In this document: positions 3,495 to 44,632 of the stretch, piece after piece
How the letters are laid out: each line of letters starts with the position of its first letter
How positions within the stretch are numbered: the stretch's first letter is position 1
Sequence record: OP172786
DNA from: Escherichia phage ECO07P3
Length of the DNA stretch: 64,000 bases
Strand: one strand, 5' to 3'
Notes under the pieces: generated by a model
What the model was told of the DNA's origin: nothing
The model's input: only the letters and a program-made list of their open reading frames with translations
Databases searched by the model: none
Translations under genes and position numbers: made by a program

Positions 3495-4181
3495 TTAAAA
3501 ATCGTGGGTAGAATCAGCTTCAAGAGCTACTACATAATTCGCATGTTCACCTTCAAATTTAGCAGCACCTTGTTTACCTTTTGCCCAGAGCAGAAGTTTA
3601 TAATTTCCTGGTTGCATTTTCATATTTGCCATATTGATAATGAAATTAAATGTATTTTCACCATCATAATCACCAAGAGTCAAAGAATATTTAACACGGG
3701 TCAAAGCAGAATCTTCCACTTTATTAAAACCATTAATTACGATTTTACCTTCTTTTACTGTGATAGCAATTGTATCAATCTGCAGACCACGAGATACACG
3801 CAACAGCTGTTGAAGGTCTTCAGCTTTAATTTCAGTAACAACAGATGCTACCGGGAATGGAATTGGTTTATTAGGAGCAACTACTGTACTCGGATCGGCT
3901 GCTGGCCAAAAAATTGTTGAACGGGCATCAGCAATTTTAATATTACCATCTTCTGACTGGGAAATTTCTGCATCATCATTAACGAGAGACAGAATACCAA
4001 GAAAACCGTTCAAATCGTAAATCGCTACATCAAAATCAATAGTGTCAGAAATATTTGCTTCCGCATAAGTTGTACCATTAACCGCGCGAGTCATAATAAA
4101 TTGACCAGATTTAAGCATAATACCAGAGTTAATAGTAGCGAAATTTTTGAGCAGAGCAGTAGTATCTTTAGACAGTTTCAT
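3495..4181 (-). CDS. 45: sliding clamp gp45
   Basis: 228-aa ORF MKLSKDTTALLKNFATINSGIMLKSGQFIMTRAVNGTTYAEANISDTIDFDVAIYDLNGFLG... matches remembered T4 gp45; ATG at 4181. Confidence 0.94.
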   Translation of the reverse strand: MKLSKDTTALLKNFATINSGIMLKSGQFIMTRAVNGTTYAEANISDTIDFDVAIYDLNGFLGILSLVNDDAEISQSEDGNIKIADARSTIFWPAADPSTVVAPNKPIPFPVASVVTEIKAEDLQQLLRVSRGLQIDTIAITVKEGKIVINGFNKVEDSALTRVKYSLTLGDYDGENTFNFIINMANMKMQPGNYKLLLWAKGKQGAAKFEGEHANYVVALEADSTHDF

Positions 4182-12673: not shown

Positions 12674-12703
12674 ATAATACCACAGTTTGAACTTCTTGTA
12701 AAC
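12674..12703 (-). promoter_or_regulatory. T4-type early promoter (-35 GTTTAC, 18-bp spacer, -10 TATTAT)
   Basis: Minus strand GTTTAC-N18-TATTAT with an A/T-rich upstream element. Confidence 0.55.
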
Positions 12704-12770
12704 AACTTTGTGAAAATTATTTTAGGGAACGATAGCTTAGAATGGTAATATACAGAATGCGATAAAGAAA

Positions 12771-23381: not shown

Positions 23382-23684
23382 CTAAAAGAAACTTCTTTCA
23401 CAATTTTTTCCACTGAACCATGCGCTCACTGCTTTCTTAGTCTCAGGAGCAGTGTTATCCATAAACCATTCAAAGGCAGCCTTTTTATGATTCTGGAGGG
23501 CTTCTCGGGCTTTAATCTGCTCACGGTCTATTAACACTAACATATGAGCCTTTCTTGTCACCATGGGCTTCTTATGATTTTTTGAATACTCCCAGTCATT
23601 TGTCCATCGCATTGTCGTTGCGAATTGAAATACAGCTTCTTTAATCTTAGTTTCGTAAATTTCACGAGCCTTTGAGTATAACAT
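23382..23684 (-). CDS. hypothetical protein
   Basis: Track ORF trimmed to the ATG at 23684, which follows GGAGGT. Confidence 0.5.
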   Translation of the reverse strand: MLYSKAREIYETKIKEAVFQFATTMRWTNDWEYSKNHKKPMVTRKAHMLVLIDREQIKAREALQNHKKAAFEWFMDNTAPETKKAVSAWFSGKNCERSFF

Positions 23685-23785
23685 CACTACCTCCATTCAC
23701 CAGTTTAATTCTAGTCATCTTTTTGATGGCAGTCCATATAATCTATTTCTGAACTGCCTTTTTGTCATAGAAGTCCTCTTATGAA

Positions 23786-24754
23786 TTATTTCAGAAGAGT
23801 AACCTCAGCAATTTCTTCCCAACCGTTTTTGTCGGTCATAATAAAGTCAGCAAGATAAAGAGCAGTACGCAGTGAAACATTGCGTAAACGATTAACATTG
23901 ACTTTCATCCATGATAATGCTTTATAAGTTTCTTCATCAGAAAGACCGCGCTTTTGCATCATGTCAGTTGAAAGAATAACATCTTCAACCCTGACCATAA
24001 TTTCTTCATTAGTGTGAACACCCAAATCCAAATAAACTGAGCGGGACACCAATGCTTGTAAGTGTGGGGCAAGTTTAGTACCACGGTCTAATTCGCGGTC
24101 AATGTCAACGTTTGTGATAAAAACAATCGTTCCTTTAAATTCAAACTCACGGTCAATGCCTTTTTCTTCTAAGTAAGAAGATGCAGTGCTCCAGCAGACT
24201 TTACGGGTCTCTCCAGTGTCCAGAGCAGCTTTTAGAAGATTAAGAATGTCCATATCAGAGAAAACATCCACATCATCAATCAAAAGGACAGAATTCTCTT
24301 CACGATTATTCCAAAGCTGCTCATAAAGACCAATACCAGAGATTTTACCATTAATGCTTTTATATTCAATGTATCCAATATCATTTGCTTTATTTAAAGC
24401 TTTATCTAAAGAATACGTTTTACCAATACCTGCTGCGCCAGAGATAATCAATGAACGAATATTTCCGTTAATAATACCGTTCGTCATCATTCCCATAACA
24501 TTAAATCTTTTATTAATGCGGGTTTTCATATCTTCATACGATTCTTTAACTTCTTCAACTTTTACACCATCATATGAAATATCTGATTTGTAAACCCAAA
24601 CACCGCGACGTTTACCGTCAATTTCAACAAAAACTTTACCATCTCCTTGTGCATCTACCGGAGCATTATCTGGGAACCATTCTCCTAAGAGCTCAAAAGT
24701 TCCAGAGATTTCTTTACCAAAGTAGATACCCTTATTGATAGTTACAGTTTTCAT
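23786..24754 (-). CDS. P-loop/AAA-type ATPase
   Basis: Walker A GAAGIGKT and Walker B VLLIDDVD; track start is TTG, ATG at 24754 follows GGAGAATAAA. Confidence 0.6.
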   Translation of the reverse strand: MKTVTINKGIYFGKEISGTFELLGEWFPDNAPVDAQGDGKVFVEIDGKRRGVWVYKSDISYDGVKVEEVKESYEDMKTRINKRFNVMGMMTNGIINGNIRSLIISGAAGIGKTYSLDKALNKANDIGYIEYKSINGKISGIGLYEQLWNNREENSVLLIDDVDVFSDMDILNLLKAALDTGETRKVCWSTASSYLEEKGIDREFEFKGTIVFITNVDIDRELDRGTKLAPHLQALVSRSVYLDLGVHTNEEIMVRVEDVILSTDMMQKRGLSDEETYKALSWMKVNVNRLRNVSLRTALYLADFIMTDKNGWEEIAEVTLLK

Positions 24755-24788
24755 TTTATTCTCCAAATCCGTATCAGTTGATAGTTGT

Positions 24789-24818
24789 ATAGTACCATAA
24801 AGCTTTATGCTTGTAAAC
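24789..24818 (-). promoter_or_regulatory. T4-type early promoter (GTTTAC-N18-TACTAT)
   Basis: Same GTTGATAGTTGTATAGTACCA core as the promoters at 23350 and 40418. Confidence 0.55.
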
Positions 24819-24849
24819 CGTTTTGTGAAAAAATTTTTTGAAATAAAAA

Positions 24850-24867
24850 GGGGACCTCTAGGGCCCC
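24850..24867 (-). terminator. GC-rich hairpin (ggggacc tcta gggcccc) flanked by A/T runs
   Basis: Directly downstream of the 24880-25365 ORF; U-run follows on the minus transcript. Confidence 0.5.
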
Positions 24868-24879
24868 CTTTGTGTTGAT

Positions 24880-25365
24880 TTATTCCATTTCTACTATATG
24901 CATGTTCTTTTTGCTATCAAAATATATGTTTTTAACTATTAACTCAGAATTAATTGGCAGTAAAAACTCTCTTTCATAATCTACCATACAAAGATTATCA
25001 TAAAGCTTGTTAAGCTTATCATCGTCAGTTTGGCCAGATTCTTCAATTGCGATTAAATTTTCTAAAATGTCAATCATAGCAGTCGAATAGTCGAAAACGT
25101 TTGCATTTTTTAACACTACTAAAACATTAGTCATATAGCGTTCTGCCGCAAACGTTTCAGCTATATGAGACTCACTGCTAAAGGAAGTTATTCTTTTAAA
25201 TTTGATTCTCCTATTAACTTCAAACTTATAAGATAGCACTTCCTCTATTGTAAGTCCTCTAAAAAGTATGTCTTTAATCTCAAGTTTGTCTTTAATGTAA
25301 TCATTAACACGCTTATGATTAAAATCATTAATTTTGTTGCCAAGGCATTGCATTAAAATATGCAT
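24880..25365 (-). CDS. putative mono-ADP-ribosyltransferase (R / S-x-S / E-x-E motif order); function inferred
   Basis: 161-aa ORF with strong RBS GAGGAGAA; motifs LFRG (R36), ITSFSSES (S61-x-S63) and YEREFLLP (E131-x-E133) in the order and approximate spacing of ModA/ModB-type enzymes. Confidence 0.4.
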   Translation of the reverse strand: MHILMQCLGNKINDFNHKRVNDYIKDKLEIKDILFRGLTIEEVLSYKFEVNRRIKFKRITSFSSESHIAETFAAERYMTNVLVVLKNANVFDYSTAMIDILENLIAIEESGQTDDDKLNKLYDNLCMVDYEREFLLPINSELIVKNIYFDSKKNMHIVEME

Positions 25366-25411
25366 TGTATTCTCCTCAATTTTTAAAGAGCAATTAATTA
25401 ACTACACATAT

Positions 25412-25441
25412 ATTATAATATGCTTTGCGATAGAAGTAAAC
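25412..25441 (-). promoter_or_regulatory. T4-type early promoter (GTTTAC-N18-TATAAT) for the 161-aa ORF
   Basis: Minus strand GTTTAC TTCTATCGCAAAGCATAT TATAAT. Confidence 0.55.
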
Positions 25442-25470
25442 AACTTTGTGACGTCATTTTAAACAAAAAA

Positions 25471-25490
25471 AGGGAGCCCGAAGGCTCCCT
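25471..25490 (-). terminator. UUCG-tetraloop hairpin (RNA AGGGAGCCUUCGGGCUCCCU) followed by U-run
   Basis: Plus agggagcccgaaggctccct preceded by aaacaaaaaaa; directly after the nucleotidyltransferase stop. Confidence 0.65.
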
Positions 25491-25491
25491 A

Positions 25492-26505
25492 TCATTTATA
25501 ATAACTTCGGTGGTTTTCAAGATAAACCCTCTCAAGGAAGTCATCCCAGAAACTCATGTCTACTTTTTGCTGCATACCGTTCTTAGAAGCTTCAATGGAT
25601 GCTGCTTCTACTTGATCGACCACATCTTCCAAAAACTCTTGAACAGTTTTAAATGGATGCTTACCCAACTTCACGTCGAGAATAAATGAAGCATCTTGGA
25701 GTGGATAAACCAAGTCACCAGTTTTGTAAATTTCCAATAGTTGGAGTCCACCACGACAAGCATGACTCAAAGCTTTCCAGTCAATGCCCTCATTCGCTTC
25801 AGCTTTACGGGCGCGTTCACCGTATTCGGCATCAAGTTTATTCAGAGATTGCTTAAGCTCAATAAGAGAAAGTGTTGTCTGATATTTACGACCCAACACA
25901 GTGTAAAACGTTTGTGGACCTGTTTTCTCATGATTATGGAATACCCATTCGCAGAACTCGTTTTCTGGAAGACGATGCTTAATATCTTCAACTTTAGTGC
26001 GACGCTGCTTAATGGAACCGTCTTCTTGGTAATCAACCCACTGGTCAGGGATTTGATTAACTACTTTCAATACATCACGTAATGCAGCCAAACGAGAACC
26101 CTTGACACCATATTTAGAAGCTTGCTTGCGGACATATCCTAAATAAGATTTCATGTTAGTTGTATAAAAACGAGAACGATTGTCTTGGATAAATTTCCAT
26201 ACATCAGGTAAATCAGATTTAACCACTAGCTCAGGTGGAGTGTGAAGCATATCCAATGCTACAGTTTCACCATCTGCTGCTAATTTAAAGAAATACTTAA
26301 GACTATACAATTCGTGGTCAATATCATCTTTAGTGTTTTTAGATGATGTGTTGTTAGTGTTTTTACTCATATGCTCTTTAACATTTCCAATAAGAATATC
26401 GCGAGCAGGAGGAACAAAGATTTCTTTAAAATCTACATCAGATTCTGGAGTAGAAGTTCCATAAAGATGACTACCAAAATAGCTTTTCATTACTGTTTTC
26501 ATCAT
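25492..26505 (-). CDS. predicted pol-beta-superfamily nucleotidyltransferase
   Basis: N-terminal signature YFGSHLYGTSTPESDVDF (GS-x10-DVD) followed by about 280 aa of unknown function; 4-nt overlap with the upstream membrane-protein gene. Confidence 0.55.
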   Translation of the reverse strand: MMKTVMKSYFGSHLYGTSTPESDVDFKEIFVPPARDILIGNVKEHMSKNTNNTSSKNTKDDIDHELYSLKYFFKLAADGETVALDMLHTPPELVVKSDLPDVWKFIQDNRSRFYTTNMKSYLGYVRKQASKYGVKGSRLAALRDVLKVVNQIPDQWVDYQEDGSIKQRRTKVEDIKHRLPENEFCEWVFHNHEKTGPQTFYTVLGRKYQTTLSLIELKQSLNKLDAEYGERARKAEANEGIDWKALSHACRGGLQLLEIYKTGDLVYPLQDASFILDVKLGKHPFKTVQEFLEDVVDQVEAASIEASKNGMQQKVDMSFWDDFLERVYLENHRSYYK

Positions 26506-26963
26506 TCAGCCTTATATTCAATAACAGGACATACTTTAGCTTTACGCGCTTTTAAAAATTCGACGATAATAGATTTCTTTGGTTGAATAGGAGGTAAACC
26601 TTTATACGCCCTATCAATATTTTCTACATGTAAAGCATAATCCTTTTTCCATTTATAATCTTTATATTTTTCATGCAGTTGTGCAGGAATAACAAATGAA
26701 CCAATAATAAGTAAAACAAGCAAAATAGCAAGTATAAATGCTGATGGAATAAGAGTCCATAAACTACCAAAAATAAGCCATTTCTGCATGATTTCTGCGC
26801 AGATGATAGTTAGACCTGCGAGTATAGTACATCCGAAAAAAGAAACGAAAAATGTAGGAATAACAATAGACCAAAAATACTCGCACAGTGTCTTAGGTCG
26901 TTTCCATTCATCATTAAACATTTTGAATAATTTATAGTGCCAAGAGTTTTCATTAATAATCAT
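26502..26963 (-). CDS. membrane protein (two predicted TM helices)
   Basis: 153-aa ORF with hydrophobic segments IVIPTFFVSFFGCTILAGLTIICA and LIPSAFILAILLVLLIIGSFVI. Confidence 0.55.
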   Translation of the reverse strand: MIINENSWHYKLFKMFNDEWKRPKTLCEYFWSIVIPTFFVSFFGCTILAGLTIICAEIMQKWLIFGSLWTLIPSAFILAILLVLLIIGSFVIPAQLHEKYKDYKWKKDYALHVENIDRAYKGLPPIQPKKSIIVEFLKARKAKVCPVIEYKAE

Positions 26964-26965
26964 AA

Positions 26966-27487
26966 TTATCCTTTCATTGAAGGTGTAACAGTTGTTAAAT
27001 ACTTAATCATAGCTTCAGCTTCTGATTTTGATAATGAAATTTCTCCATTGTTTTGACGAATAGAAATAAAATCCGGATGACGGTCACCACCAGCTTTTAA
27101 AACACACATATAAGTATCAGTTTCATCTTCAATATTTGAAATAATTGAAGCAGTTCCGCATGAATGCGGTTTTTGATAAATCAATACGGCTTTTCTTCCA
27201 CCGTTTGACTGTTCATAAACTTTTAACACATCAAACAAATCACTTCTTTTATCAATAGCTAAGATGTTGTTTTCATCTTCAATGTTAAATCCTTCGGATA
27301 CTTCATAAAGCGTCACCCATAAATCACCTATATCGATAGTAGCATTTTCCTTTCCATGACTTTCAAGAGTATGACAAATTTTCTTGATTTCGTCATAACT
27401 CATTTTAATAATATCATCTCCTTGAATAAGGAAGATGTCATTTTTAAATTCAACACGAATTAAACCACTTTCACTTGAAATAAACAT
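26966..27487 (-). CDS. hypothetical protein, paralog A of a tandem pair
   Basis: 173 aa; shares EGFNIEDENNILAID and C-terminal SEAEAMIKYLTTVTPSM with the next ORF. Confidence 0.55.
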   Translation of the reverse strand: MFISSESGLIRVEFKNDIFLIQGDDIIKMSYDEIKKICHTLESHGKENATIDIGDLWVTLYEVSEGFNIEDENNILAIDKRSDLFDVLKVYEQSNGGRKAVLIYQKPHSCGTASIISNIEDETDTYMCVLKAGGDRHPDFISIRQNNGEISLSKSEAEAMIKYLTTVTPSMKG

Positions 27488-27493
27488 ATTTCC

Positions 27494-28051
27494 TCACTTT
27501 GAAATCATAGTTGGAATGACAGAATCAAGATAAGTCTTTAGCGCAATAGCTTCGTCTTTGGTAAATGTGACAATATGTGATCGAAAATCGTCAATTTGGC
27601 GAATAGTTAAGACATCTCCCTCTTCATAACATTTTGATACATTTAAAAGAGTTTCATCATTCTGATTGCAAGCGTTAGTAATAATAGCATTGCAATTTTT
27701 GAGCCATTTTAAACTATGTTTTCTTTCATTAGAATAATAAAAATATTTAATCTTAGCTATAAAATTATCCCAATTATTAATTGATAAGCATATCGACTCG
27801 CTTTCAATATTAAATCCTGGGCATAAAGAATAAAAATGAATTTTATGCTCATCATTAATGCTTACAATTTTATCAGTGTAAGGTTTTTCAATTTGGGTCA
27901 AATGAATAATTTCACTAGGAGTAAAATACAGCATATCGTCTTCTTGCGTCAAACGATACATATTATTTACTTTTTCTATAGCCAATTCACCAAAAAGTGA
28001 ACTAACTTCTAGTACTAATCGTTTCATATTGATTCTCTTCGGCTCACTCAC
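27494..28051 (-). CDS. hypothetical protein, paralog B of a tandem pair
   Basis: 185 aa by track (GTG start; alternative ATG at 28027); PGFNIESESICLSIN and C-terminal TKDEAIALKTYLDSVIPTM. Confidence 0.55.
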   Translation of the reverse strand: MSEPKRINMKRLVLEVSSLFGELAIEKVNNMYRLTQEDDMLYFTPSEIIHLTQIEKPYTDKIVSINDEHKIHFYSLCPGFNIESESICLSINNWDNFIAKIKYFYYSNERKHSLKWLKNCNAIITNACNQNDETLLNVSKCYEEGDVLTIRQIDDFRSHIVTFTKDEAIALKTYLDSVIPTMISK

Positions 28052-30969: not shown

Positions 30970-31172
30970 TGCACCTTTAAGCAATATTCTTCTACGTGTT
31001 GTTTACGTTTATTTTTATCTATAAAAGTATATTCAACATATTCACCGATATACCATTTATCAGTGTTGTGTTGACTTTTTATAGGACATTTGGTTACTCG
31101 AGTTTCGGTCCAGCGTCGAATAATTTCCGCTTTGTTTTTAGGGTCAAACGGATGCGGGTAATGTGCTTTCAT
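30960..31172 (-). CDS. hypothetical protein
   Basis: 70-aa ORF. Confidence 0.5.
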   Translation of the reverse strand: MKAHYPHPFDPKNKAEIIRRWTETRVTKCPIKSQHNTDKWYIGEYVEYTFIDKNKRKQHVEEYCLKVQWL

Positions 31173-31623
31173 AATCCACCACTATTAAATCAATATCAGG
31201 AGTAAACATGTCGATTAATTTAGAAACCTTATCCCAATCACCGCCAGCAATACCACAACCTATGCGTGGAATGTAAATTACTGGTTTAAACAAAAGGGTT
31301 TCTGCTTGTAGATTTAATTCTATCATGCAGTTTACTAAAGCACCATAATCAAGATTAGGACCCGGTTCGTATTGCGTATACAGGTTATAGCATATACCAA
31401 ATCCTGTAGGATTATGTTTAAAAACAATAGACATATCGCCTAATTTATCACGAGAACCGTACTCAGTAGTGGTTTTATCTATTTCTAAAATTTTAGGATA
31501 GGCTCTTGCTAATTGACCCGCTACACCTGAACCCATAGTATGAAAACAGTTGCACCCGTGCGCAATAATATTACCTTGAAGAAATAGGGCGACAATATCG
31601 CCCTTGATATATTTTACAATCAT
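31144..31623 (-). CDS. macro-domain protein (putative ADP-ribose binding/hydrolase)
   Basis: 159-aa ORF with IAHGCNCFHTMGSGVAGQLA and IPRIGCGIAGGDWDKV blocks resembling the two glycine-rich macro-domain motifs. Confidence 0.55.
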   Translation of the reverse strand: MIVKYIKGDIVALFLQGNIIAHGCNCFHTMGSGVAGQLARAYPKILEIDKTTTEYGSRDKLGDMSIVFKHNPTGFGICYNLYTQYEPGPNLDYGALVNCMIELNLQAETLLFKPVIYIPRIGCGIAGGDWDKVSKLIDMFTPDIDLIVVDYESTLPASV

Positions 31624-36572: not shown

Positions 36573-37013
36573 TTAAAAGAGGTTGTTCATTATTCGGTAA
36601 AGTGAAGAACCCATCACATATTGCCACTGAGTACGAGGAATAAGAGCAAAAGCATCCATCTCTGGAATCATAACGCCATCTTTATTTTCAAAATAAGACT
36701 CACAATGGCAATTTCTAAACATCTCATGCTCTACTGGAATCGTATAATAAAACAACTGTAAGTCTTTATTACTAGAATATTTAAATACACCTAGGTCTTC
36801 TAGAAGGTCTGGATTATAATTGCTAAAACCGGTCTCTTCTAAGCATTCTCTTCGTGCTGCATCTAGTGCGCTCAAATCAGAATTTTCTACACGGCCTTTT
36901 GGAATATCCCAGCGATGTGCCATCATTCCAGGCTTACGAGAACCAGTAACTCGTCCCATAAATAAATCTTTATCTTCTGTCATAAAGATAATACCAGCTG
37001 ATAGTGTTTTCAT
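36573..37013 (-). CDS. nudE: Nudix hydrolase NudE
   Basis: Nudix box GRVENSDLSALDAARRECLEETG; start set at the ATG after AGGAAA (37013); track gives 37028. Confidence 0.85.
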   Translation of the reverse strand: MKTLSAGIIFMTEDKDLFMGRVTGSRKPGMMAHRWDIPKGRVENSDLSALDAARRECLEETGFSNYNPDLLEDLGVFKYSSNKDLQLFYYTIPVEHEMFRNCHCESYFENKDGVMIPEMDAFALIPRTQWQYVMGSSLYRIMNNLF

Positions 37014-37498
37014 TTTAATTTCCTGCATTCAGTGATAAAGTTATTTAAATTTTGAGCATATTTCTTTTCATCAAAAATCTTTTGCTGCCTACGTAAACGC
37101 CATGGCATTTCAATGAACACGCACCATATTCCTGATAGTACTGCTGCTGTAAAAATATTAACAAGTATGATTAAAAGAATCCAATCTCCCGTTCTGCCTA
37201 CTGGACTTTCTCCAAAGAAGCAAAATACAAATGATGTCACAGGAAAACTAATAATATACCACAGAATCATAATCTTATCTGTGAACCAATCAGCGTTCGT
37301 TAATTTAGCGCGACCATTATGAATACACACGAATTTATCATCTGTTGCAGTAGATGGCTTAACTGGTTGATATCCCATTCTAAACTCCCTAATCAGCAAA
37401 TTTTTCATATCTTCGGAACAGCCATTCCAGTCAACTCTATCAACTGAAATGCCATCGTCCCCATCATCTAAATCATACCAGCGAGTTTTTAAAATCAT
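37010..37498 (-). CDS. membrane protein
   Basis: 162-aa ORF with several hydrophobic segments. Confidence 0.5.
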   Translation of the reverse strand: MILKTRWYDLDDGDDGISVDRVDWNGCSEDMKNLLIREFRMGYQPVKPSTATDDKFVCIHNGRAKLTNADWFTDKIMILWYIISFPVTSFVFCFFGESPVGRTGDWILLIILVNIFTAAVLSGIWCVFIEMPWRLRRQQKIFDEKKYAQNLNNFITECRKLK

Positions 37499-40417: not shown

Positions 40418-40447
40418 ATAGTACCACGGAAGAACATGGATGTAAAC
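40418..40447 (-). promoter_or_regulatory. T4-type early promoter (GTTTAC-N18-TACTAT)
   Basis: Minus strand GTTTAC ATCCATGTTCTTCCGTGG TACTAT. Confidence 0.55.
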
Positions 40448-40584
40448 AGTTTTGTGAAAAAATTTTAAAAAGTTTTAGGGAATTCTAGGGAAGGGATGGG
40501 CAATTAAAGGATAGGATAATATATTATAAAGGGTATAAACTAAATGATGCCTAGAGAGGCGCGGAAAGGCCTAGATACCAAAAA

Positions 40585-41841: not shown

Positions 41842-41917
41842 TGGTCGAGGCAGTAGGGATCGAACCTACGACCTAGGACTTAGAAGGTCCTTGCTCTTCC
41901 TTCTGAGCTATGCCCCG
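41842..41917 (-). tRNA. tRNA-Arg (anticodon UCU)
   Basis: 76 nt incl. CCA; manual cloverleaf: acceptor CGGGGCA/UGCCUCG, D-stem GCUC/GAGC, anticodon loop CUUCUAA, T-arm GUAGG-UUCGAUC-CCUAC. Confidence 0.85.
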
Positions 41918-41921
41918 TAAT

Positions 41922-41997
41922 TGGGGTGACCGATGGGAGTCGAACCCATGACTACGAGAATCACAATCTCGAGTTCTACCAACTGAACTACGGCCAC
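41922..41997 (-). tRNA. tRNA-His (anticodon GUG)
   Basis: 76 nt incl. CCA; acceptor GUGGCCG/CGGUCAC, discriminator C73, anticodon loop UUGUGAU, T-arm AUGGG-UUCGACU-CCCAU; no encoded G-1. Confidence 0.75.
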
Positions 41998-42111
41998 ATT
42001 AATACCTACTCCAACAATCAAGATGTCTTCACACGAAATTAAGAGAAGAGTGATCAGTTCAACCCCGATAATCGCGTCAAGTAGATATTAATGTGACAAT
42101 TGTCACAAATT

Positions 42112-42186
42112 TGGCGGACGTGATAGGATTCGAACCTATAACCAATCGCTTAACAGGCGATCGCTCTGCCATTGAGCTACACATCC
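42112..42186 (-). tRNA. tRNA-Asn (anticodon GUU)
   Basis: 75 nt incl. CCA; acceptor GGAUGUG/CACGUCC, anticodon stem AUCGC/GCGAU with loop CUGUUAA, T-arm AUAGG-UUCGAAU-CCUAU. Confidence 0.8.
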
Positions 42187-42190
42187 AAAT

Positions 42191-42277
42191 TGGTGGGGAG
42201 TGATGGAGTCGAACCACCCGAGTCGCAATGACAATGGATTTACAGTCCACACCGCTACCTCTACGGGATAACTCCCC
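42191..42277 (-). tRNA. tRNA-Tyr (anticodon GUA), long variable arm
   Basis: 87 nt incl. CCA; acceptor GGGGAGU/ACUCCCC, anticodon stem GUGGA/UCCAU with loop CUGUAAA, long variable arm, T-arm GGUGG-UUCGACU-CCAUC. Confidence 0.7.
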
Positions 42278-42290
42278 TTAATTCTTAATT

Positions 42291-42365
42291 TGGTGGCCCT
42301 GGGTGGAATTGAACCACCATCTGGCGATTATGAGTCGCTTGCTTGAACCTTCCAGCTACAGGGCC
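42291..42365 (-). tRNA. tRNA with CAU anticodon (Ile-type as in T4, or Met)
   Basis: 75 nt incl. CCA; acceptor GGCCCUG/CAGGGCC, anticodon loop CUCAUAA, T-arm GGUGG-UUCAAUU-CCACC. Confidence 0.75.
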
Positions 42366-42366
42366 T

Positions 42367-42442
42367 TGGTGCTGATTGACGGAATCGAACCGCCGACATC
42401 CTCATTACAAGTGAGTTGCTCTACCTACTGAGCTAAATCAGC
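42367..42442 (-). tRNA. tRNA-Thr (anticodon UGU)
   Basis: 76 nt incl. CCA; acceptor GCUGAUU/AAUCAGC, anticodon loop CUUGUAA, T-arm GGCGG-UUCGAUU-CCGUC. Confidence 0.85.
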
Positions 42443-42447
42443 AAAAC

Positions 42448-42537
42448 TGGCGGAGGCGATAGGATTTGAACCTATGAGTCGCCGGAGCGACTGCCGGTTT
42501 TCAAGACCGGTGCATTAAACCACTCTGCCACGCCTCC
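42448..42537 (-). tRNA. tRNA-Ser (anticodon UGA), long variable arm
   Basis: 90 nt; sequence GGAGGCGUGGCAGAGUGGUUUAAUGCACCGGUCUUGAAAACCGG... with anticodon loop CUUGAAA and T-arm AUAGG-UUCAAAU-CCUAU. Confidence 0.85.
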
Positions 42538-42539
42538 AG

Positions 42540-42613
42540 TCTCCATACAAGGATTTGAACCTTGGGCCTCCTGATCCCAAATCAGGCGCTCTACCAAACT
42601 GAGCTACACGGAG
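42540..42613 (-). tRNA. tRNA-Pro (anticodon UGG), CCA not encoded
   Basis: Acceptor CUCCGUG/UAUGGAG, anticodon loop UUUGGGA, T-arm CAAGG-UUCAAAU-CCUUG; abuts tRNA-Ser as in the T4 Pro-Ser dimeric precursor. Confidence 0.85.
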
Positions 42614-42623
42614 TAAATTAAAT

Positions 42624-42697
<74 letters not shown>

Positions 42698-42702
42698 AAA
42701 TT

Positions 42703-42789
42703 TGGTGCGAGAAGTGGGACTCGAACCCACAAGGAAATCATTCCGCAGCATTTTAAGTGCTGTGCCTTTACCAATTTGACCATTCTCGC
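42703..42789 (-). tRNA. tRNA-Leu (anticodon UAA), long variable arm
   Basis: 87 nt incl. CCA; acceptor GCGAGAA/UUCUCGC, anticodon stem CAGCA/UGCUG with loop CUUAAAA, T-arm GUGGG-UUCGAGU-CCCAC. Confidence 0.85.
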
Positions 42790-42790
42790 G

Positions 42791-42863
42791 CTGGGAATAA
42801 AGGACTCGAACCTTTGCATCCTGGAATCAAAATCCAGTGCCTTACCAACTTGGCTAATTCCCA
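42791..42863 (-). tRNA. tRNA-Gln (anticodon UUG), CCA not encoded
   Basis: Acceptor UGGGAAU/AUUCCCA, anticodon loop UUUUGAU, T-arm AAAGG-UUCGAGU-CCUUU; 1 nt from tRNA-Leu as in the T4 Gln-Leu precursor. Confidence 0.85.
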
Positions 42864-44580: not shown

Positions 44581-44620
44581 TGATGAGGTAATAGTATCAC
44601 TACCTCATCAACGTGTAAAC
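44581..44620 (-). promoter_or_regulatory. T4-type early promoter (GTTTAC-N18-TACTAT) whose -10 sits between a perfect 10-bp inverted repeat
   Basis: Plus tgatgaggta-atagtatcac-tacctcatca, then gtaaac at 44615-44620. Confidence 0.55.
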
Positions 44621-44632
44621 AACTTTGTGAAA

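Follow-up and report, generated by a model that had tools for sequence, protein, structure and literature searches.

The locus between nrdC.11 and nrdC.10 in Escherichia phage ECO07P3 (sequence record OP172786) raises a simple question: what does the short open reading frame (ORF) lying there encode, and how is it related to the same place in phage T4, where it is absent? We analysed a stretch of 64,000 nucleotides (nt) from this phage, called the window below, whose positions are used throughout. An earlier note on this DNA had described here a moron-like cassette for a possible small mono-ADP-ribosyltransferase, and all the sequence features it listed are present, either exactly where it had placed them or a few bases away. 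The ORF runs from 24880 to 25365 on the minus (-) strand, starts with ATG, ends with TAA and specifies 161 amino acids (aa). It very probably encodes a short R-S-ExE mono-ADP-ribosyltransferase of the ModA/ModB family, predicted to be catalytically competent, and stands on an accessory PeSL module whose expression is predicted to be early. PeSLs are elements which consist of an early promoter with an AT-rich stretch and a stem-loop (Arbiol et al. 2010, PMC2839356; Comeau et al. 2014, PMC4122927).

Family membership and predicted fold

A ModA/ModB-type ADP-ribosyltransferase (ART) had been proposed for this ORF from its motifs, and the homology searches bear this out. The protein matches PHROG 832, 'RNA polymerase ADP-ribosylase', with an expectation value (E) of 1.4e-23, and the modB genes recovered by tblastn are those of VR26-type phages (E 4e-11) and of T4 (E 5e-5). 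In an alignment of the shared region it is 27% identical to T4 ModB and 29% identical to T4 ModA. Comparison by hhalign of a profile of its own short clade, described below, with a profile of 17 ModA/ModB-like proteins gives a probability of 99.7% (E 1e-25, 152 columns).

All family representatives found were aligned, 37 sequences with a mean column identity of 23%, and the only invariant columns are R36, G37, S61, E131 and E133. R36-G37 is aligned to R73-G74 of ModB and R72-G73 of ModA; S61 falls on the serine kept by the family, and E131/E133 fall on the EQE of ModB, which corresponds to E163/E165 of ModA. The motif order R, S-x-S, E-x-E of the R-S-E (cholera-toxin-like, ARTC) clade is present and the strand positions are consistent with it. 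R36, S61, S63, E131 and E133, the residues on which the earlier note relied, were verified codon by codon, as was G37; in its S-x-S motif the first serine is the one that the family keeps, while S63 varies between Ser and Thr. The coding sequence and the motif codons, including the arginine predicted to bind nicotinamide adenine dinucleotide (NAD), are as follows.

24880..25365, minus strand: coding sequence of the predicted short Mod-family (R-S-ExE) ADP-ribosyltransferase (PHROG, alignments, predicted structure, selection)
25255..25260, minus strand: codons R36-G37, predicted NAD-binding arginine (invariant in 37 sequences)
25177..25185, minus strand: codons S61-F62-S63, STS-type motif carried by a beta strand that leads into a helix (S61 invariant; aligned to TSTS of Vis)
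24967..24975, minus strand: codons E131-R132-E133, predicted ExE catalytic motif (both Glu invariant; aligned to KEAE of Vis and EQE of XopAI)

Searching the Protein Data Bank (PDB) with the 37-sequence profile finds the arginine-specific Vis (4xzj, E 0.0018), whose YRG, TSTS and KEAE are aligned to the three motifs, and also XopAI via its EQE segment. With a smaller profile of 5 sequences the PDB search returned only a spurious match to Cog5. Solved R-S-E ARTs, namely Tre1 (6drh), HopU1 (3u0j), C3 (1r45, 1ojz), VIP2 (1qs1), Vis, Certhrax and XopAI, are only 10-18% identical to the window protein, the R, STS and ExE motifs being aligned to Vis and XopAI at the profile level. Unlike these enzymes, the window protein has neither a domain for secretion or translocation nor an immunity partner.

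A review table gives R72, S109, F127, F129 and E165 as functional residues of ModA (PMC8120803). Four of the five, R72, F127, F129 and E165, map to R36, F91, Y93 and E133 of the window protein. The R73A mutant of ModB is catalytically inactive (PMC10468400). T4 ModB (207 aa) shares with the window protein the R-G pair, the invariant Ser, the ExE motif, the order of the predicted core elements and a helical segment that separates core strands ahead of ExE. The window protein differs from it in its length of 161 aa, in the absence of the helices of ModB-type residues ~1-37, in its locus and in its separate clade; no more than a few percent of Tequatroviruses have its gene. T4 ModA (200 aa), which ADP-ribosylates Arg265 of the alpha subunit of RNA polymerase, has its R72, F127, F129, E163 and E165 matched by equivalents in the window protein, which differs in lacking the N-terminal part and in carrying A74 at the position of S109.

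Only 30 representatives were found at E <= 0.001 by an exhaustive representative search, so the Mod family is small; word-indexed searches had given 3 and then 15 relatives. No close cultured relatives were found by tblastn with the metagenomic short forms P0017 and P0018, and a scan of viral contigs with the short-clade profile returned only Moon, Moonvirus CF1 and Gelderlandvirus STML-198, all already known. A match to PF26816 (Mod_ADP_RT) is precomputed for P0001, which represents the 90% cluster of the window protein, and for P0002 and P0003. Our local Pfam-A scan gave no match for the window protein or for T4 ModA/ModB, and is uninformative because the local copy lacks PF26816; NCBIfam likewise has nothing for the window protein, T4 ModA or T4 ModB. 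The exact protein is already in NCBI, and its 90% cluster has 51 members, to which UniProt, RefSeq and several GenBank entries give the names 'ADP-ribosylase', 'RNA polymerase ADP-ribosylase' or 'NAD--protein ADP-ribosyltransferase'. The ART assignment is not new, as it re-derives an existing homology-based annotation. The databases thus already place the protein in the right class. The name 'RNA polymerase ADP-ribosylase' is unsupported, having been given by homology only.

The AlphaFold2 model, built on a 13-sequence alignment, has a mean predicted local distance difference test score (pLDDT) of 90.6 and a predicted template modelling score (pTM) of 0.83. Foldseek gives 82 matches in the PDB at E <= 0.001, and all the 50 listed are ADP-ribosyltransferases, including C3 exoenzymes, Tre1, ExoS, XopAI, Certhrax, VahC, CDTa, SpvB, Vis and VIP2. 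A fold other than that of ARTs, which the earlier note had named as the outcome that would speak against an enzyme of this kind, was not obtained. Among predicted viral structures (BFVD) the best match is the 'ADP-ribosylase' of ACG-C40, with 93% identity and a template modelling score (TM-score) of 0.98, and the ModA and ModB models give query-normalised TM-scores of 0.78-0.88. The model suggests an ART core of ~120 residues with a two-helix insert at residues ~93-131. R36 closes a strand in this model, E133 opens one, and S61 is part of a strand that leads into a helix, which is the canonical placement. By alignment to NAD-bound structures, R36, S61 and E133 would be clustered in three dimensions.

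Several observations weigh against an active enzyme of this family. The canonical motif of the ADP-ribosylating turn-turn (ARTT) loop is X-X-aromatic-X-X-E/Q-X-E (PMC8120803). In the window protein residues 115-131, before and into ExE, are modelled as a long helix and not as the canonical turn-turn loop, and residues 126-133 read CMVDYERE, with V128 at the canonical aromatic position and Y130 two residues later. This deviation is common to ModA and ModB, the latter reading MMIVREQE. The A74 found at ModA S109 stands in a column that is not conserved in the family. Of the four ModB-type N-terminal helices, 1 and 2 are missing, with possible effects on stability or on the binding of targets. 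Between the T2 and CF1 alleles there are 9 non-synonymous changes but a single synonymous one, which is not a signature of strict constraint, the numbers being too small to interpret. Furthermore, a literature search covering nrdC.10/nrdC.11, ACG-C40 and the ART paralogues of T2 found no paper on this gene or on the biochemistry of its clade.

The cassette between nrdC.11 and nrdC.10

The earlier claim of a 161-aa ORF with its own early promoter, a strong ribosome-binding site (RBS) and hairpin terminators on both sides can be followed element by element, since all of these were located. The elements and the two neighbouring genes are listed here, with stem lengths in base pairs (bp).

25372..25377, minus strand: Shine-Dalgarno sequence GAGGAG, 6 nt 5' of the ATG
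25412..25450, minus strand: T4-type early (sigma-70) promoter of the cassette, including the upstream CACAAAGTT element
25471..25490, minus strand: upstream stem-loop followed by a T-run (8 bp, 6 GC pairs; -17.5 kcal/mol, z -4.2)
24847..24871, minus strand: downstream stem-loop followed by a T-run (10 bp; -16.5 kcal/mol, z -3.2)
24789..24827, minus strand: nrdC.10 early promoter (CACAAAACG; -35 TTTACA, 17-nt spacer, -10 TACTAT at 24789-24817), the promoter part of the downstream PeSL
25492-26505, minus strand: nrdC.11-type nucleotidyltransferase (Pfam RlaP, PHROG 388), upstream neighbour
23786-24754, minus strand: nrdC.10-type AAA (AAA/STAND-like) ATPase, downstream neighbour

The cassette promoter consists of the -35 box (G)TTTACT at 25435-25440, a 17-nt spacer and the -10 box TATAAT at 25412-25417. 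Its score of 10/12 is the joint best, with one other site, in a promoter scan of 23500-26800 (3.3 kb), a region of AT-rich DNA where simple promoter-like matches are common (21 vs 12.4 expected). The extended early-promoter motif CACAAANNNGTTTAC is present in 5 copies in the window vs 0.5 expected, two of them flanking the ART ORF. Both flanking promoters fit TTTACW-N17-TAYWAT, the consensus of PeSL promoters in the PST/T4 group (PMC4122927). The further copies of CACAAANNNGTTTAC lie on the minus strand at 12698-12712, 40442-40456 and 44615-44629. That at 40442 leads into a 5' untranslated region (UTR) with GGTACTATACAACTATCAACT, which is near-identical to the 5' UTR of nrdC.10 and suggests that promoter and UTR modules are reused.

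The upstream hairpin is located directly 3' of the nrdC.11-type stop codon. It is the intrinsic terminator of nrdC.11 and at the same time the stem-loop part of the upstream PeSL, and the same hairpin exists in T4, where the nrdC.10 promoter adjoins it. The downstream hairpin starts 8 bases past the stop codon of the ORF; it serves the cassette as intrinsic terminator and also provides the stem-loop for the downstream PeSL. Both hairpins of the earlier note are real, with the correction that the upstream one belongs to nrdC.11 as its terminator. With its own promoter, RBS and terminator the cassette is self-contained, as had been claimed, and it is a true presence/absence unit.

Other candidates were rejected. 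A longer ORF is excluded by the -10 box of the promoter, which sits 47 nt 5' of the ATG. For the homologue P0002 a 181-aa call spans its own promoter, and the real start is the internal MHILM. A MotA-type middle promoter in the 5' UTR, sought by eye only, was discarded because the sole candidate -10 overlaps the start codon.

The argument for an additional ART had been made with T4 in mind, whose ART genes were placed outside the window. This premise fails: the window phage is a Tequatrovirus other than T4, and T4 itself has no ART gene in this place. Over 25 kb the best matches of the window are Escherichia phages EP01 and W143, with 96.4% identity. A tRNA cluster at 41842-42863 on the minus strand holds 11 genes, for Arg, His, Asn, Tyr, Met/Ile(CAU), Thr, Ser, Pro, Gly, Leu and Gln. 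T4 proper has 8 tRNA genes and is not known to have those for His, Asn and Tyr, so the set of 11 is further evidence for a Tequatrovirus that is not T4.

In T4 the nrdC.11 hairpin is joined straight to the nrdC.10 promoter, and the alignment shows that exactly the promoter-ORF-hairpin segment is absent. For the presence/absence survey proposed earlier there are 713 phage records with a match to the nrdC.11-nrdC.10 region. In 35 of these the match extends over at least 80% of the region, and they carry the insert; most of the others, T6 included, cover 77-79% and are without the insert. T4 and ~95% of the relatives are thus without the ART gene. A protein at least 90% identical is encoded in 43 of 50,697 phage records searched by tblastn, including T2, HY01, UFV-AREG1 and ACG-C40.

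The two flanks of the cassette align with each other, forming an imperfect direct repeat around it. In T2 they are a 54-nt direct repeat with a spacing of 621 nt, and recombination inside this repeat would yield the T4 arrangement. The upstream repeat copy in the window is more diverged than that in T2. In Moonvirus CF1 and Gelderlandvirus STML-198 the cassette has ~93% nucleotide identity while the surrounding genes are much more diverged, and the similarity runs from the -35 box to the RBS of the next gene. Few positions vary between the copies of T2, CF1 and STML-198 in the promoter and 5' UTR, which were compared from the -35 hexamer down to the start codon. In CF1 and STML-198 the shared nrdC.10-type 5' UTR and RBS drive a different ORF of 59 aa. 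In the STML-198 copy (locus L005, ~3570-3640, compared with window 24795-24870) the downstream hairpin is missing together with the -35 part of the next promoter, the gap stopping just before the -10 box.

The same slot can hold other cargo. In G2540 (locus L006, 1334-1743) it contains two unrelated small ORFs of 49 and 87 aa. Judging from G2540, the record inspected, the same two-ORF cargo is probably present in many other listed records in which the match is split in three.

More distant homologues are found at other places. The 61%-identical one lies between regA and the DNA polymerase gene of an uncultured T4-like phage, and the 52%-identical one downstream of an RlaP gene. Each is preceded by a GTGTACTTT...TAYAAT-type promoter and a similar 5' UTR, the 52%-identical one by a stem-loop as well. 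The cassette gene also has a low content of guanine and cytosine (GC), 29.4% vs 36-38% for the flanking genes. Given the identity of the cassette across genera, the promoters and 5' UTRs ahead of the distant homologues and the low GC, we therefore conclude that the gene travels with its own expression signals. From the junctions we infer that gain and loss of the cassette proceed by PeSL recombination.

As in known PeSL cassettes, the non-essential ORF is bracketed by two sets of stem-loop terminator, AT-rich stretch and early promoter. The cassette appears as an insertion or deletion between close relatives and shares its slot with alternative cargo; recombination or mini-circle formation at the PeSLs of this locus is deduced from the junctions. 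It resembles the morons of temperate phages, to which it had been likened, in its own promoter and terminator and in its insertion between two conserved genes. However, the window phage is a strictly lytic T4-like phage, and the gene is co-directional with its neighbours and served by an early lytic promoter. It is unlike the lysogenic-conversion genes that a repressed prophage expresses.

Paralogy, selection and possible function

The protein is a member of the Mod family, as anticipated, but it belongs to a distinct short clade and is not a plain copy of ModA or ModB. It is ~40 residues shorter at the N terminus, and its alignment begins at ModB residue ~38. In the model of the ModB-type protein P0005 (pLDDT 89.5) helices 5-14, 18-31, 34-45 and 50-62 precede the Arg strand, and the last two are kept in the window protein. 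In a neighbour-joining tree (without bootstrap) the window protein groups with its 93%, 61% and 52% relatives, five metagenomic short forms (175-189 aa) adjoin, and this short group is separate from the ModA-like and ModB-like clades. The whole clade is 157-189 aa long. Since the short length is a property of the clade, it does not represent a recent truncation.

The location between nrdC.11 and nrdC.10 is distinct from the modA-modB locus, which lies between srd and modA.2 and is the separate canonical locus of modA and modB in T4 and HY01. HY01 carries the cassette in addition to modA and modB at the canonical locus. In HY01 the cassette gene is a third Mod paralogue, and it would be a fourth ART if alt is present there too, as in T4. 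The idea of an additional ART thus holds for HY01, the one carrier checked.

The ORF is under purifying selection. The ratio of non-synonymous to synonymous substitution rates (dN/dS) is 0.14-0.18 against the T2, CF1 and STML-198 orthologues, and 0.14-0.20 in three pairs with the 61%-identical L008, the pairs for which dS could be estimated. Between the window allele and that of T2 there are 9 non-synonymous and 13 synonymous changes. The T2 (L001, 3237-3722) and CF1 (L004, 3083-3568) alleles differ by R52K, V90I, S111G, T113I, N116D, C126S, N139S, S151N and S154N. These might reflect recent diversification at the tip of the helical hairpin and in the C-terminal strands, or noise.

In the mechanism that we propose, host sigma-70 RNA polymerase, unmodified or Alt-modified, would transcribe the gene in the first minutes of infection, and transcription would stop at the cassette's own hairpin terminator. 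The early timing is deduced from the type of promoter. NAD+ would be bound in the cleft of the ART core, its phosphates being held by R36 at the end of strand 1, while S61 on the STS strand would lend stability to the pocket. E133 would promote cleavage of the nicotinamide-ribose bond and stabilise the oxocarbenium intermediate, and E131 would direct the transfer to an arginine of a host protein. These residue roles follow the known R-S-E ART chemistry (PMC8120803). Arginine is the predicted acceptor because of the ExE form of the motif; the enzymatic activity and the arginine specificity are both predictions. The PeSL-flanked module itself would be gained, lost and exchanged among T4-like phages via recombination in the promoter and stem-loop repeats.

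The missing N-terminal helices, the separate clade and the presence of modA and modB alongside the gene suggest that its targets are not those of ModA and ModB. One alternative to a general Mod-type role keeps the same chemistry and makes the enzyme an accessory host-range or counter-defence factor which acts on a strain-specific host protein, for example part of a defence or toxin-antitoxin system, and not on the targets in transcription and translation that ModA (R265 of RNA polymerase alpha) and ModB (S1, EF-Tu and trigger factor) modify. We regard it as possible, though as the less likely view. The gene is patchy, being present in ~5% of the relatives, and occupies a hyperplastic slot in which other phages carry different cargo; it bears the marks of recent cross-genus transfer and a GC content below that of its flanks. 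The protein stands apart from the ModA-like and ModB-like clades without their first two N-terminal helices, the one checked carrier already has modA and modB, and the T2/CF1 substitutions are mostly non-synonymous. Precedents exist in the action of Alt on MazF and of AcrIF11 on Cas8f (PMC8120803, PMC12421852). However, patchiness is typical of most genes in hyperplastic regions regardless of function. PADLOC gave no match for the ART ORF or its two neighbours, though its models cover defence and not counter-defence. A more specific form of this idea, which we put forward tentatively, is that a mobile, PeSL-borne minimal ART, which has lost the N-terminal Mod helices and acquired a strain-specific defence, toxin-antitoxin or translation target, is a host-range or counter-defence determinant separating T2-like phages from T4, possibly with RNAylation.

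RNAylation as such would mean that the enzyme uses NAD-capped RNA besides NAD and, like ModB, attaches RNA chains to host proteins. ModB does so with the same R-S-ExE site (PMC10468400), and the window protein is of ModB's family, with an identity to ModB (27%) similar to that to ModA (29%). Against this, it lies outside the ModB clade, and the available text of that report describes the reaction for ModB only. There is no known sequence determinant of RNAylation, so nothing in the protein discriminates, and we consider this activity doubtful.

It is very unlikely that the ORF is a degenerate, N-terminally truncated and dead Mod remnant, which would serve, if anything, as a binding decoy or regulator. 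Such a remnant could explain the ~40 missing residues with their two helices and the loss of ModA S109. Against it, the five family-invariant catalytic residues are kept, also in the 52-61% relatives of the clade, dN/dS is 0.14-0.20, the model is confident and compact, and the shortness is common to a clade of 157-189 aa proteins.

Equally little speaks for a protein that is mainly an NAD+ glycohydrolase lowering or reshaping the host NAD pool. ARTs can pass ADP-ribose to water (PMC9503650), but the window protein has an ExE motif, its closest characterised relatives ModA, ModB, Vis, Tre1 and C3 are transferases, and no NADase-specific feature came to light. That the ORF arose by chance in AT-rich intergenic DNA, in favour of which its short length and nothing more could be cited, is refuted by the significant homology, the confident fold, the purifying selection and the conserved expression signals. 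The predicted short Mod-family mono-ADP-ribosyltransferase remains the best account of the gene.

Neighbouring genes and meaning for T4-like phages

Two further proteins with a possible link to ADP-ribose are encoded in the same early region, 6-11 kb upstream of the cassette, both on the minus strand. One is a Macro-domain protein at 31144-31623, which is T4 tk.4-like (Pfam Macro, E 5.8e-8). The other is a NUDIX hydrolase at 36573-37028, which by its position we take to be T4 e.1-like. They could be enzymes that remove or process ADP-ribose in a phage with several ARTs. By position we presume both genes to be counterparts of conserved T4 genes and not linked to the cassette.

Directly upstream of nrdC.11 lies a hydrophobic ORF of 153 aa (26502-26963, minus strand), with only weak matches to membrane proteins in Pfam. 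T4 has a homing endonuclease gene at this position, mobD by our reading, which is another presence/absence difference between the two phages. Two tandem paralogues of the y05I-like putative transcription factor lie at 26966-27487 and 27494-28051, both on the minus strand and each with Pfam T4_y05I_N and T4_y05I_C.

The three ADP-ribosyltransferases of T4 are a textbook case of the viral rewiring of host transcription and translation. More recently ModB was shown to attach RNA to proteins (PMC10468400). A naturally minimal paralogue that is present in T2 and absent from T4 offers an easy comparison for finding which parts of the Mod proteins decide the target. The contrast between T2 and T4 would also test whether accessory ARTs serve host range or counter-defence. 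In addition, the cassette is a clean example of an enzyme gene, its function being predicted, that moves between T4-like genera as a promoter-gene-terminator module.

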